A program made the translations under genes and the position numbers. A model generated the notes under the pieces. That model was not told where the DNA came from and did not search any database. It saw only the letters and a program-made list of their open reading frames with translations. A stretch of DNA of 64,000 nt from a virus (taxonomy: Duplodnaviria > Heunggongvirae > Uroviricota > Caudoviricetes): the IMG/VR virus record IMGVR_UViG_3300035696_000002. One strand, 5' to 3'. How positions within the stretch are numbered: position 1 is the stretch's first letter; each line of letters begins with the position of its first letter. Below are positions 45,159 through 49,800 of the stretch, piece by piece.

Positions 45159-46933
45159 GTAACCCAATGGAAAGCTTAATCCGGGCCTACATCGCGTGTG
45201 GTGGAGACCCAAACGACCTGCTACAAAGCCTTCAAGAGGCACCGCCTCCGCTGGCTGAGGATGAAGCCCGCTTTTTCAAGCAGTACGAAGACGAAATGGG
45301 TCAATAATGCCACTACCAGCGGGACGCGAATCCGAGTACATCGAAGACCGGGATCGGGAGATGAACGAACGGCACATGAAGACCTGCACCTATGTCGGGT
45401 GCTCCGTATGCCGATTGATCCGGGGAGAATGCGACTACTTCGATCCGCACTTTGAGAAGCGGGAGAATGGCGGTTTCCTGTGAAGGACAAAGCACTGCTT
45501 GCCAGACGAACTGTGCTCAAGATCGCGGAGTTCCCGGAAGAGTTTACTCGTCTGCTCCTCGAAAACATCGGCACGGACGCCACGGAAGACTTCATGGATC
45601 AGATGTACCGTATCTGGAGCGACGAGGGCTGCCACAAATGACCAAGTACGATGAGCCCGCGATGGCTCTGTGTGAAACGGTCACGATACGGGGAGGGCAG
45701 GTCTTGCACCTTGCCGAGAAAGGGAAGTCCGTCACCACCTGTGGCTCACCTGTCTCCCGTCGCACTTGGTTCGCACGCTATGCCCCGGCGACCGGGTGCA
45801 GTGCTTGTTTGGTCGCTGCGTGGGAACTATTGCCTGAATTCAGAAATCGGTTCAACACAAAATGATACGGAACGAACCACCACAATTCATGGCGAAGATG
45901 GAGACCGTTTTTCAGGCTGCTAAAAAGCAGGCGAAAAAACGGAAATGGGTCGATCCAGTCTACATGTACTACGACCGTCCGAAAGATTACGCCGACATTC
46001 GACGCATCAATCGGCTGCTCGCCCCCCACAACATGGTGTTCAAGACGTTTTCAGGCCGGGGGCAGTGGCGTAGACTGGGCCTGCTGGTTGCCATTGATCC
46101 GACCAAACTTCCGGCCCGAGATTGGTGTGGAATCGCCGACGAGATCATTTGTGAAAACAACGGTGGTGCCCAATAATGCTTTTCTTCCTGTGGATGGTAG
46201 TTTGGATCGGTGGGACGTGTGGTTGGGGTGAGCACAACGGAGCCTTGGCCGCAATCGCCTACTTCATCCTTTTCCCATTCGGGAGCCTGTGCATAAACTA
46301 TGCCTTTCGGAGATGGTCATGAACCCGTTTGAGAAAGTAGTTTTGAACCCATTCGAGAAGTGGGTGTCGGTGAACTTCACTGGGGTGGAGATGCCCGATC
46401 CGCCCGAGGACTGGGATCGCCAGAACGAGTTTTTCTACCTGATCGACGGCAAGCAGTATCGGATTCCGTTCGCCCGCGTGCCGGAAGAATTCAAAGCCAT
46501 CACCCTATTGGCCCGGATGGTGTCATGAATCCGTGGAACCCGCTCGCCACTACGCCCGACAGTAAACCACTCCGCTCTGGTGACTGTTGCATGGAAGCCT
46601 GTATTCACCTAATCACAGATGATCGCGGTGAGGTTCATTCTTATCCCGGCGTCAAAGGTTGGTGCGACTGTTGGTGCCATGAACGTTACTATGCCCAGAT
46701 GCGAAAGCGAGCCCACTTTGCTTGAACCACACCTGCAACATTCTGATCGACCTTTCTGAGGAGTGCGGCAAGCCTGCCGTCATGTGGATTGATGAGGAGG
46801 GGTGTTGCCCGGCCCACGTCCAGAAAACCTACTACTGTGCGAAGCACTGGGATGAATACTGCGACGGGAAGTACGGGTGTGTCTGGAGCATCCGCAACGG
46901 CGGGTTCCCGTGCTACTCCACAAAAACCGTCTA

Positions 46934-46963
46934 TTGACAATTTCTCGACTTTCCGGGTATTAT
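46934..46963 (+). promoter_or_regulatory. Sigma70-like promoter of the tRNA operon
   Basis: TTGACA (46934-46939)-18 nt-TATTAT (46958-46963). Confidence 0.8.
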
Positions 46964-46973
46964 TACAGAGAAC

Positions 46974-47054
46974 ATGAACCGCATATCCTCATTATCGTCG
47001 TCTAGTAGCTCCTTCGGGGGCTTTGGTGAGCGTGTGCGTTGGCGTGGTTGGTAA
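46974..47054 (+). CDS. Attenuator leader peptide MNRISSLSSSSSSFGGFGERVRWRGW
   Basis: 8 Ser codons covering all six Ser codons, plus ATA and TTA; lies between promoter and terminator. Confidence 0.82.
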   Translation: MNRISSLSSSSSSFGGFGERVRWRGW

Positions 47055-47078
47055 GACACCCAAAGACATCGCAGTCCG

Positions 47079-47108
47079 AAGCCGCCTGAAAAGGGCGGCT
47101 TTTTTATT
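47079..47108 (+). terminator. Attenuator terminator upstream of tRNA cluster
   Basis: AAGCCGCC-TGAAAAG-GGCGGCTT followed by TTTTATT; 5' arm can alternatively pair with GGCTTTGG at 47019-47026. Confidence 0.88.
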
Positions 47109-47117
47109 GGTTTTCAT

Positions 47118-47207
47118 GGAGAGTTGGGCGAGTGGCTTATGCCGTCTGGTTGCTAACCAGATGCCCCTTAACCGGGGCCGGGGGTTCGAATCCCTCACTC
47201 TCCGCCA
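47118..47207 (+). tRNA. tRNA-Ser(GCT)
   Basis: GGAGAGT/ACTCTCC acceptor, TCTGG-TTGCTAA-CCAGA, long variable arm, TTCGAAT, G73-CCA. Confidence 0.96.
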
Positions 47208-47211
47208 TCTT

Positions 47212-47303
47212 GGTGAGTTGGGAGAGTGGTTTATTCCAGCAGCTTGGAAAGCTGCCGCACTCCGCAAGGGGTGCCGGGGGTTCGAATCCCTCACTCACCG
47301 CCA
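47212..47303 (+). tRNA. tRNA-Ser(GGA)
   Basis: GGTGAGT/ACTCACC acceptor, GCAGC-TTGGAAA-GCTGC, long variable arm, G73-CCA. Confidence 0.96.
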
Positions 47304-47470
47304 GTTCGATTGTTCTGTATGGTGAATTTGCCCCTACAGGGCAAAGGTTGGATACAAAAAGCAAGGGGCCGGGTACATGAAACCCCGGCCTCGCGTGCTA
47401 CGGCAGCGGGACATTTATGAGGTCTGTCTATGCCGCGTGATCCTGACCTGAATAGTAATACCGGATTTTT

Positions 47471-47563
47471 GGAGGGTTTGGTACATTGGCAAGTCCGGCT
47501 GCCTTGAAAGCAGTTATACGCCTAACCCGCGTATTGGGGGTTCGACTCCCTCACCCTCCGCCA
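47471..47563 (+). tRNA. tRNA-Ser(TGA)
   Basis: GGAGGGT/ACCCTCC acceptor, GCTGC-CTTGAAA-GCAGT, long variable arm, G73-CCA. Confidence 0.93.
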
Positions 47564-47569
47564 TTTTGA

Positions 47570-47665
47570 GTCACCCGATTTTGGGTGACAAACGCAAAGT
47601 CAGCCTATTTTGGGTGACAAGCTTAAAACGTTGACATTGCCAGAATCAAGCTTAAAAGCTTGACA
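47570..47665. repeat. Two pairs of short palindromic direct repeats in tRNA spacer
   Basis: GTCACCCGATTTTGGGTGACAA / GTCAGCCTATTTTGGGTGACAA; CAAGCTTAAAACGTTGACA / CAAGCTTAAAAGCTTGACA. Confidence 0.75.
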
Positions 47666-47673
47666 ACGAATTT

Positions 47674-47769
47674 GGAGAGGTTGGTACATGTGGCAAGTCC
47701 GCTCGCCTCGAAAGCGAGTCACGGGGTTAACCACCCCGTGTGCAGGTTCGACTCCTGTCCTCTCCGCCA
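47674..47769 (+). tRNA. tRNA-Ser(CGA)
   Basis: GGAGAGG acceptor, CTCGC-CTCGAAA-GCGAG, long variable arm, TTCGACT, G73-CCA. Confidence 0.93.
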
Positions 47770-47790
47770 TTTTTGCAGTATTATTGTTGT

Positions 47791-47994
47791 ATGACCGAAA
47801 AAGAGTTGTTCGAGAAAGTTCAGGCCTACAACGATAAGCTGAAAGAGTACGGGTCGCGTAAACAGCTTCATACGTCGTTGGGCACCACTTTCCCAGAAGA
47901 GAAGCAGTTCCGCGAAGAGATCGACAAGCTCCTGAAAGAGATCGCCATGGAGTTTGTGCGGCAACGCGAGATCGCGAGGGCTGAAGGTGCCTGA
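47791..47994 (+). CDS. Hypothetical protein
   Basis: TATTAT 6 nt before ATG. Confidence 0.55.
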   Translation: MTEKELFEKVQAYNDKLKEYGSRKQLHTSLGTTFPEEKQFREEIDKLLKEIAMEFVRQREIARAEGA

Positions 47995-48325
47995 ACGAAT
48001 TTGCGAAGTGAACATGTATCGCGGGACTGGCGAATTTCTCGGCCAAGATTGGACGGACGGCATGCACGGGCCGATGTCAAATGTCCGGTCAGAGAAGAAC
48101 AAAATCGGATGCTTCAATCCGGCCCGCTGGCTGAATCCGTTCTACGATCCCGAGGGCACCAGATTTAGATCGGTGTGGGACGACGATTCTGATGTTTCAC
48201 TCCCCATCACTGGGGGTTATAATTACGCCCAGTGGCTCTGCACGGAGCACTATGACGAGGTTATCGTCATGGCAAAGGAAGACGAAGAGATCGACCGCGT
48301 GCGTAGGGGAATTGATGAGGATTAA
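47987..48325 (+). CDS. Zn-finger-like hypothetical protein
   Basis: ICE..GCFNPA..WLCTEHYD. Confidence 0.55.
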   Translation: MPERICEVNMYRGTGEFLGQDWTDGMHGPMSNVRSEKNKIGCFNPARWLNPFYDPEGTRFRSVWDDDSDVSLPITGGYNYAQWLCTEHYDEVIVMAKEDEEIDRVRRGIDED

Positions 48326-48569
48326 GGTCGTTTACCGAAAGAACCTAAAGATGTCGCCCGGCAAGCTGGCGGCTCAGACTGGACACGCTGTACTGGGGCT
48401 CAATGGGGCCTACGCTTCGATGTCGATTGTGGTGCTCGAAGCGAGTGACAAGAAGTTTCAGGAAACGAAGGCGGCTCACCCCGAGGCCTGTGTGGTTCGG
48501 GACGCTGGCCGAACAGAAGTTGCACCCGGTACCGAAACGGTGCTGGCTTACTTTGAGGATGGTCAATGA
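48315..48569 (+). CDS. pth2: Peptidyl-tRNA hydrolase 2 family (short)
   Basis: VYRKNLKMSPGKLAAQTGHA ... VRDAGRTEVAPGTETVL. Confidence 0.9.
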   Translation: MRIKVVYRKNLKMSPGKLAAQTGHAVLGLNGAYASMSIVVLEASDKKFQETKAAHPEACVVRDAGRTEVAPGTETVLAYFEDGQ

Positions 48570-48651
48570 AGTTATACGACCGATTATATCCGCATCGCAT
48601 GTGGATCATGCTTGGGTTTTTGATATGCATGTGGATCGCAACTGAATACAT

Positions 48652-48728
48652 GCTCCGGTGATGCAATAGGCAGACATCCTCCACTTAAAACGGAGGTTTT
48701 GAGAGTTCGATTCTCTCCCGGAGTACCA
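48652..48728 (+). tRNA. tRNA-Leu(TAA), short variable loop
   Basis: GCTCCGG/CCGGAGT acceptor, loop CTTAAAA, GAGAG-TTCGATT-CTCTC, A73-CCA. Confidence 0.85.
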
Positions 48729-48731
48729 AAT

Positions 48732-48826
48732 GGGGGAGAGCACGGGTGTGCGGGCGGGATTTATAACCCTGTAATTGCTCCTGATTAGAGTGCACGGTGT
48801 GAGTTCGAGTCTCCACTCCCCTACCA
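48732..48826 (+). tRNA. Atypical tRNA with TAT anticodon (Ile2-reading), long variable arm
   Basis: GGGGGAG/CTCCCCT acceptor, loop TTTATAA, extra arm around CTGATTA, TTCGAGT, A73-CCA. Confidence 0.75.
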
Positions 48827-48856
48827 TTTCAACCCTACCTGTGGTATCATCTCAAC

Positions 48857-49120
48857 ATGAGTGCTCAAATGCGGCTTACGATCTTCCTCGTAGTGTGGAC
48901 GCTACTTGTCGTCGCATTGGCCCATGGGCAAACTCAGAAAAATCCTACGTTCGCTAACCCGGCCCCTCCTCGCAAACCGCACCAATCAGTGAAACTTCCG
49001 ATCCTTGGCCGGGCTGCCAGCACTTTCATGTCGAGGCACCCGCATCTCGTAGGCCTCCTCGGCAACATCAACATCGAGTACGACAAACCACACAGATTCA
49101 ATACGGAGAAAAAGAAATGA
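48857..49120 (+). CDS. Small secreted protein
   Basis: Signal peptide ending ALAHG; TGG-TATCAT 6 nt before ATG. Confidence 0.55.
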   Translation: MSAQMRLTIFLVVWTLLVVALAHGQTQKNPTFANPAPPRKPHQSVKLPILGRAASTFMSRHPHLVGLLGNINIEYDKPHRFNTEKKK

Positions 49121-49800
49121 AGCACGGTATCTGGCTTGCCATTCTCGCAGTCGTGTTCTCCTGCACAGCCTTTTCGCAGGAAGTCATCATGAACCAACCA
49201 TCGGCTGATGTCGTAGACAAGGGGCACCTGTTCGTCCGGTCGGACTCGTTCTATACCCAGAAGCCCGCCTACTTTTTCGAGAACGTCAACTTCGCCTACG
49301 GCCTCGGGCACAACTTGGAAGTCAGCCTCAATAGCAGCGATCTCGCTCACGGCTCTGACATCTGGCAGATCGTACCCGGCATCAAGTGGGCACCGATCAA
49401 AACCAAGAATTTTGAAATCTACGTCGGCGATCAGTACTGGAAGCCCGTGTCGAACTTCACCTACTACCACAACGGCAACGTGAGCTACGAGGCCGCAGCC
49501 CTCAAGGCGGGCAACTGGCGATTCACGGGCGGCGTATTCCAGTCCTACAACGCCTACGCACCGGGCAACCGGGCTGGGGCCATCGGCGGCGTCGAGTGGA
49601 TGGCGAAGATGTTCAAGAACGGCTGGATGATCGCACCCGGCGTTGACTACGGCAGCGGTGCGGGCACTAACGGCTATACCAGCCCCGGCGTCATGTTCCA
49701 GAAGAAAAACTTCTTCATCTGTCCCGGCTACATGATCGCGAACCCGCACAACCCGAACGGTGCTCACCAGAGCTTCGTCATGATCGGGGACACGTTCTAA
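49117..49800 (+). CDS. Putative outer-membrane beta-barrel protein
   Basis: Signal peptide AFS|Q, alternating aromatic/Gly beta strands, C-terminal Phe. Confidence 0.7.
   Translation: MKHGIWLAILAVVFSCTAFSQEVIMNQPSADVVDKGHLFVRSDSFYTQKPAYFFENVNFAYGLGHNLEVSLNSSDLAHGSDIWQIVPGIKWAPIKTKNFEIYVGDQYWKPVSNFTYYHNGNVSYEAAALKAGNWRFTGGVFQSYNAYAPGNRAGAIGGVEWMAKMFKNGWMIAPGVDYGSGAGTNGYTSPGVMFQKKNFFICPGYMIANPHNPNGAHQSFVMIGDTF

Follow-up and report, generated by a model that had tools for sequence, protein, structure and literature searches.

A candidate leader-peptide attenuator in front of a serine tRNA operon in a huge phage, with a sensor tract matching the tRNAs encoded downstream

The window analysed here is a stretch of 64,000 nucleotides, bases 15749-79748 of a 463,033-bp IMG/VR virus record (IMGVR_UViG_3300035696_000002, rated complete and called G000 below). 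Within it, a short open reading frame (ORF) rich in serine codons, the Ser leader, lies between a promoter and a cluster of tRNA genes. Based on the sequence and on modelled RNA folds, this locus is very probably a ribosome-mediated leader-peptide transcription attenuator that gates the phage tRNA operon behind it, and one of six such units in G000. The same interpretation had been put forward in an initial annotation, and it is supported by conservation in relatives, by covariation between leaders and arrays, by recurrence in front of five other arrays and by folds computed with a masked ribosome. The elements of the locus are, in window positions:

46934-46963, plus strand: sigma-70-like promoter, with TTGACA at 46934-46939, a spacer of 18 nt and TATTAT at 46958-46963
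46974-47054, plus strand: leader ORF of 26 codons, followed by TAA
46983-47012, plus strand: sensor tract, codons 4-13 (ATA TCC TCA TTA TCG TCG TCT AGT AGC TCC)
47002-47012, plus strand: region 1, the tract end, paired with region 2 in the minimum-energy fold of the ribosome-free RNA
47014-47026, plus strand: region 2, predicted antiterminator 5' strand (UCGGGGGCUUUGG), paired with 47076-47089 in transcripts lacking the terminator 3' arm
47076-47089, plus strand: region 3, predicted antiterminator 3' strand, overlapping the 5' arm of the terminator
47078-47108, plus strand: intrinsic terminator, a G+C-rich stem of 9-10 bp (47078-47102) with a T-run after it

The promoter, the 26-codon ORF, the terminator and the downstream tRNAs were all located where the initial annotation had placed them. 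The promoter matches the consensus at 11 of 12 positions and belongs to a family (TTGACA/TTGCAA-N16-17-GTATTAT..AGAGA) that is found upstream of all six tRNA clusters of G000. Its -10 element ends 10 nt upstream of the leader ATG, and therefore the 5' untranslated region (UTR) is estimated at ∼3-5 nt. As in an attenuator, a short promoter-proximal ORF carries a cluster of regulatory codons, and an intrinsic terminator, with a stem energy of -17.7 kcal/mol, separates this ORF from the tRNA genes, the first of which starts 10 nt further downstream at 47118.

The sensor tract contains all six Ser codons, ATA and TTA, and nothing else. When the 463-kb genome was scanned in six frames for ten-codon windows composed entirely of these eight codons, the tract was the sole 10/10 window among 926,002, and it lies 144 nt upstream of the only Ser tRNA cluster of G000. 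A genome scan for a promoter followed by an ORF of 12-60 codons and a perfect-stem terminator returned three matches, all of which are tRNA-array leaders. Behind the Ser leader, the following genes are found:

47118-47207, plus strand: tRNA-Ser(GCU), called by ARAGORN and Rfam
47212-47303, plus strand: tRNA-Ser(GGA), called by ARAGORN and Rfam
47471-47563, plus strand: tRNA-Ser(UGA), called by ARAGORN and Rfam
47674-47769, plus strand: tRNA-Ser(CGA), called by ARAGORN and Rfam
47791-48569, plus strand: three small protein genes (67 aa, 103 aa and 84 aa) between Ser(CGA) and Leu(UAA)
48315-48569, plus strand: PTH2 peptidyl-tRNA hydrolase, 84 aa (E 1e-12)
48652-48728, plus strand: tRNA-Leu(UAA), called by ARAGORN and Rfam
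48732-48826, plus strand: atypical tRNA-like gene; anticodon loop UUUAUAA (UAU), variable arm long, CCA end encoded

Both programs confirmed the four Ser tRNAs and Leu(UAA) that had been claimed. For the sixth gene (48732-48826), neither default ARAGORN nor Rfam made a call in G000. ARAGORN settings allowing introns or low thresholds gave inconsistent readings and were abandoned in favour of homology. The gene aligns end to end with the sequence following Leu(UAA) in G001 and with a gene of G008 that ARAGORN calls as tRNA-Ile(TAT) (both genomes are relatives, described below), and an anticodon loop YUUAUAA and an unusual long variable arm are common to all three. Because of this homology and the shared loop and arm, the gene is best read as an atypical tRNA-Ile(UAU). 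The UAU tRNA of the initial annotation is therefore retained through its counterparts in relatives, not through a tool call in G000.

To follow the predicted RNA structures, the ribosome was modelled as a 29-nt mask on the leader RNA. In the full-length minimum-energy fold (z-score -2.28), 47002-47012 is paired with 47017-47026 and the terminator is formed, and the terminator probability of the full-length Ser leader without ribosome is 0.93. The 1:2 hairpin of an attenuator is thus present in the fold, with an uncertain strength since the truncated transcript still favours the antiterminator. With the A site at codons 2-11 the terminator probability dropped to 0.02-0.23, and with the A site at codons 12-25 it was ∼0.95. 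All six downstream anticodons have at least one codon among codons 4-11, where the mask lowers the terminator probability. In transcripts cut before the terminator 3' arm, the 5' arm pairs with 47014-47026. The pairing of GGCTTTGG (47019-47026) with CCGAAGCC (47076-47083), as proposed in the initial annotation, is part of the predicted minimum-energy antiterminator, and the nested helices proposed with it are present in the truncated-transcript fold. In the predicted folds, a ribosome that has moved past the tract covers the antiterminator 5' strand. Folding under ribosome-footprint constraints hence went in the expected direction, with a stall in the tract favouring the antiterminator and passage favouring the terminator. 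The arrangement recurs in other units: in 10 of the 10 units tested, which come from five genomes, the terminator 5' arm finds its partner in an ORF segment a few codons past the tract, and in these units the predicted pairing between arm and ORF weakens once the mask passes the tract.

Together, these elements suggest the following mechanism. Transcription would start from the sigma-70-like promoter, and a ribosome would initiate on the 26-codon leader nearly at the RNA 5' end. Slow decoding of ATA, TCC, TCA, TTA, TCG, TCT or AGT would stall this ribosome in the tract, the trigger being scarcity of the matching aminoacyl-tRNA, of host or phage origin. Region 2 (47014-47026) would then be free to pair with region 3 (47076-47089), which would block the terminator and allow RNA polymerase to reach the four Ser tRNAs, Leu(UAA) and Ile(UAU). 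When decoding is fast, the ribosome would cover region 2, the terminator would form and transcription would end. As the tract is read by the very tRNAs that the operon yields, the circuit would act as a negative-feedback supply loop for these isoacceptors. We infer that the leader is translated, as well as how strongly and in which direction the unit responds and what triggers it biologically; replacement of cleaved or uncharged host tRNAs is one of several purposes compatible with the design.

G000 encodes 68 tRNA genes and a tmRNA (g242851-243196), and its tRNA genes lie in six clusters sorted by amino-acid class. Five further leaders (L2-L6) precede tRNA arrays of G000, each enriched in the amino acids of its own array. 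Four of them are followed by a canonical terminator and L6 by a hairpin without U-tract; no leader was found for the sub-cluster of G000 with Lys and CUA-suppressor tRNAs. Leaders and arrays correspond as follows:

L2: leader with K, H, N, R, Q, W and all four CGN codons; array with Trp, His, Arg, Asn, Gln, Cys and Lys
L3: leader with T, Q, I and all four ACN codons; array with Ile, Thr and Gln
L4: leader with A, V, G, C, E and D; array with Val, Gly, Ala, Asp, Cys and Glu
L5: leader with the Leu codons CTA CTG CTC TTG CTC CTT and with TAT and TTC; array with Tyr, Leu and Phe
L6: leader with P, M and F; array with Pro, Gln, Met and Phe

When cognate codons were counted in G000, every leader scored highest with its own array, L5 in a tie with the GNN array, and the actual leader-to-array assignment ranked alone at the top of 720 permutations. 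The Leu leader L5 lacks TTA, a codon that is found in the Ser leader, in front of the array with Leu(UAA).

No close relatives of G000 were found in the collections searched. Single-protein searches with three neighbouring ORFs detected no relatives, the homologues of a 326-aa neighbour protein were identical copies of the same phage only, and matches of the region to phage GenBank records were of tRNA length only. A scan of IMG/VR with the promoter motif for related loci was discarded, as it yielded 12 chance matches, none of them near tRNAs. Relatives were identified instead through the DNA polymerase PolA, which defines a huge-phage clade with ∼50-65% identity, and the tRNA arrays of G001 (455 kb), G002 (332 kb), G007 (317 kb) and G008 (300 kb) were retrieved for comparison. 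All four carry leaders with terminators upstream of sorted tRNA arrays, which brings the units to six in G000 and at least 16 across the four relatives. The actual leader-to-array assignment was uniquely best in each relative (1/120 in G001, 1/6 in G002, 1/24 in G007 and 1/24 in G008), results that are not independent across genomes because the units are homologous.

The homologous loci retain the ORF with its tract, and also a terminator that can pair through its 5' arm with ORF sequence immediately 3' of the tract, an outcome that favours the interpretation of the initial annotation. In the G001 Ser leader, ORF and frame are conserved, ATA, TTA and Ser codons are present, and the same five-tRNA Ser/Leu(UAA) array follows, here contiguous and with no intervening genes. 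Where arrays have been rearranged, the leaders differ with them. In G007, the Tyr, Leu and Ser tRNAs are merged in one array, which is preceded by a single S/L/Y leader that includes TTA, and an array with His/Arg/Asn/Lys/Phe/Met/Pro/Gln/Trp tRNAs is preceded by one leader that touches 16 of its 16 anticodons. In G008, tRNA-Cys is located within the Gln/Thr array, and a Cys codon is found in the matching leader. TTA is found in whichever leader precedes Leu(UAA), and a leader ATA coincides with a UAU tRNA in the array (G000, G001 and G008); in G007 ATA is absent, and no UAU tRNA was found in that genome. The search for covariation between leader codons and downstream anticodons was thus positive, through the rearrangements in G001, G007 and G008 and through TTA, ATA and Cys. 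In G006 (314 kb, same PolA clade), the arrays, with 48 tRNAs, are mixed and not sorted, and convincing leaders were not found (L078-L080). Not all members of the clade thus have the attenuator system, and G006 represents a natural contrast case. A separate observation concerns the G001 Ser unit, where a Cys-rich ORF for a putative HNH-type endonuclease is inserted between the attenuator terminator and the first tRNA-Ser (L068:1170-1500).

It is somewhat probable that the clade runs a modular, self-referential tRNA supply, in which each sorted array has its attenuator and the tract indexes the isoacceptors and is rewritten as tRNA genes move. The phage would in this way sense codon by codon what host translation lacks and make only those tRNAs, as a combined sensor and repair system against depletion or tRNA-cleaving defences.

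No Shine-Dalgarno sequence was found upstream of the Ser leader ORF. Every leader found begins with an ATG near the -10 element, and in all five genomes the leaders have a short 5' UTR or none, which suggests that initiation is of a leaderless type. The G001 Tyr/Leu leader contains the last 12 codons of the Ser leader (G001 L073:1035-1077 and window 47014-47054, respectively), with five differences, all five of which are synonymous third-position changes. Together with the conserved frame, this lends indirect support to translation of the Ser leader. Because the two leaders share their 3' halves, the units appear to be modular, with differing sensor tracts exchanged on one common expression platform. 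The peptide endings RVRWRGW, SEGWDD, SEGWGA and PDGWDG recur with differing synonymous codons in G000, G001, G002 and G007, on leaders with different tracts (for example window 47016-47051; L072, L074, L077 and L081). These C-terminal endings could induce pausing, either through the nascent peptide or at the stop codon, and the motifs RVRWRGW and SEGWDD may add a nascent-peptide pausing step to the mechanism.

It was considered whether the unit is a chance constellation or annotation artefact, that is, an untranslated ORF-like stretch in front of an ordinary promoter-proximal terminator. The short 5' UTR and the missing Shine-Dalgarno sequence would fit this explanation, but the tract is 1 in 926,002 windows, comparable units number six in G000 and at least 16 in four relatives, and the shared segment has diverged through synonymous changes alone. 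This explanation is regarded as extremely improbable. The conserved peptide endings bear on a second alternative, in which the terminator is constitutive or leaky, or a hairpin for processing or stability, the ORF encodes a conserved small protein or serves as a translation-coupling device, and the codon match reflects common ancestry or local composition. Conservation of the C-terminal peptide and the recurrent SEGW(D/G) ending could indeed mean that the peptide itself matters. However, several independent rearrangements changed leader and array content together, the tract stands out from the whole genome, and in every case the terminator 5' arm shows complementarity to the part of the ORF directly after the tract, which makes a non-sensing role very unlikely.

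How far the match between leader and array extends to individual codons was assessed by resampling synonymous codons with the leader peptides unchanged. In the Ser leader, coverage of the five called anticodons by their Watson-Crick codons is complete and above expectation (P 0.007), and an excess was also found for its homologue in G001 (P 0.022). Over all 22 units, 137 codons were covered compared with 125.2 expected (P 0.005). Since this excess is modest, the matching is chiefly at the amino-acid level, with a smaller but real codon component. The one-for-one correspondence of tract codons and anticodons in the initial annotation consequently holds in part: the amino-acid match is strong, and the codon-level excess is clear for the Ser leader and modest overall.

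This result is relevant to a third alternative, in which a translated leader with its terminator reports amino-acid starvation or general translation stress, hence charging and not tRNA loss, so that tRNA output is tuned to host physiology. Attenuators of the trp/his type respond to decoding rate, and a missing tRNA is indistinguishable from an uncharged one. A decoding-rate sensor in the phage would likewise be unable to separate the two, and a leader match that is mostly at the amino-acid level speaks for starvation sensing. On the other hand, extra tRNA gives no relief from amino-acid starvation and the feedback would therefore be purposeless. Moreover, the isoacceptor codon coverage of the Ser leader exceeds expectation, and TTA and ATA follow single tRNA genes instead of amino-acid families, with TTA absent from the Leu leader L5. 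Starvation sensing is therefore judged unlikely, although less so than the two previous alternatives, and an attenuator that senses the supply of the tRNAs it controls is preferred.

Several observations weigh against this attenuator. L2, L4 and L5 show no clear switch in the full-length equilibrium fold, and their competing structures are visible only in truncated folds. With the mask at the stop codon, the terminator probability is 0.19 and the antiterminator closes around the ribosome, which is sterically doubtful. The ribosome-free truncated transcript already favours the antiterminator, and the basal state therefore depends on kinetics. With no Shine-Dalgarno sequence and a 5' UTR of ∼3-5 nt, a leaderless-like start is needed. 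Amino-acid composition explains most of the codon matching, and the homology of units from different genomes makes the permutation values non-independent. Finally, Ser(CGA) is separated from Leu(UAA) and the UAU gene by 880 nt and three protein genes, and an internal promoter may serve these last two genes. The -10-like box at 47779, which had been named as a candidate for this, has no recognisable -35 element.

Further features were noted around the tRNA genes. Between Ser(UGA) and Ser(CGA), short direct repeats are found in the spacer at 47565-47672, with TTTTGGGTGACAA present twice and AAGCTTAAAA..TTGACA present twice; the two TTGACA boxes are possible internal promoters or protein-binding sites. 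The PTH2 gene lies inside the Ser/Leu tRNA operon and would be co-induced upon ribosome stalling. R2K ATP-grasp, NADAR and AAA ATPase genes are located within or between tRNA arrays of G000 (L016:3563-4375, L019:3941-4444), and a fragment-like histidyl-tRNA synthetase gene of 204 aa is located between tRNA-Trp and tRNA-His (g87826-88440; L016:826-1440).

The Pro/Met/Phe leader of G000 (g345941-346140; L019:5941-6140) encodes the conserved peptide MNxMRP..MFRPC.PT.RG (relatives L023, L024, L026, L039 and L051). Instead of a U-tract terminator, the conserved hairpin CCCCGYGC-TGCTAG-GCRxCGGGG comes after this leader. The 5' arm of this hairpin is complementary to the ORF segment GCGCGGGG, and both covary. 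In G000 the hairpin's 3' arm doubles as the 5' acceptor strand of the first tRNA-Pro, and this points to control of tRNA folding or processing instead of termination.

A promoter of the same family at g240740-240359 of G000 (minus strand; L017:5859-6240) drives a 110-codon ORF with TAG as its third codon. This ORF lies upstream of the sub-cluster with three CUA (amber suppressor) tRNAs (g238747-239065 is also listed for this observation). The possibility that it encodes a PTH2-like protein was set aside, as it has no Pfam match. There was no sign of global TAG recoding in G000, although the three CUA suppressor tRNAs are present.

Leader-peptide attenuation is a textbook mechanism, known for genes of amino-acid synthesis and charging. 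In a full-text literature search, no description of leader-peptide control of tRNA genes was found, in phages or elsewhere, which is in line with the initial annotation, which knew of no attenuator over phage tRNA genes. Likewise, no account of the regulation of huge-phage tRNA arrays, or of amino-acid-sorted arrays with matched leaders, was found in the literature. If the mechanism is correct, attenuation controls tRNA genes, and the sensed quantity and the product are the same molecules. It would then be the first mechanistic account of how the tRNA complement of a giant phage is regulated, and would explain why such arrays are sorted by amino acid. The purpose of phage tRNAs, whether codon-usage matching, replacement of degraded tRNAs or counter-defence, would become testable with simple reporters. 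As compact modules consisting of a chosen tract on a shared platform, the leaders are candidate codon-specific sensors of translation capacity.

The unit shares features with several known systems. The tRNA arrays of jumbo and huge phages are thought to offset differences in codon usage or host tRNA depletion, and G000 resembles them in its large, near-complete tRNA complement. Like ordinary bacterial tRNA genes, such as pheU and pheV of E. coli, the Ser unit has a sigma-70-like promoter. In E. coli K-12, however, the pheU/pheV promoter lies directly next to the tRNA, and neither a leader ORF nor a terminator intervenes, whereas the phage unit has both; a Phe leader at these loci, considered as a precedent, was ruled out since the K-12 loci have none. 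The pheM leader attenuates the synthetase operon pheST, and T-boxes recognise uncharged tRNA by direct binding, without a ribosome. In these systems, too, production of a part of the translation apparatus depends on the decoding or charging of the cognate tRNA, but pheM controls a synthetase where the phage leader would control tRNAs, and a ribosome, which T-boxes dispense with, would be used here. No match to the T-box riboswitch was obtained from Rfam in 46500-49200 (E<=1). The Rfam families of amino-acid operon leaders gave no match in this interval either (cmscan at the same threshold), where only tRNA-related and spurious matches were returned.

The closest parallels are the classical attenuators. 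As in hisL and trpL, a codon run would be read by a translating ribosome and hairpins are mutually exclusive. Those leaders repeat one or two codons and control biosynthetic enzymes, whereas the phage Ser leader uses six Ser codons once or twice each and has tRNAs as its targets. The thr leader senses Thr and Ile, and the ilvGMEDA and ilvBN leaders sense Ile, Leu and Val. With these multivalent attenuators the phage unit has in common a promoter-proximal ORF, a run of codons for more than one amino acid, 1:2, 2:3 and 3:4 pairings, a terminator and, in the proposed mechanism, readthrough upon stalling. It differs from them in being nearly without a 5' UTR, in synonymous codons and additional TTA and ATA codons that track single isoacceptor genes, and in its targets, which are the very tRNA genes that read its own tract and would close a self-referential loop.

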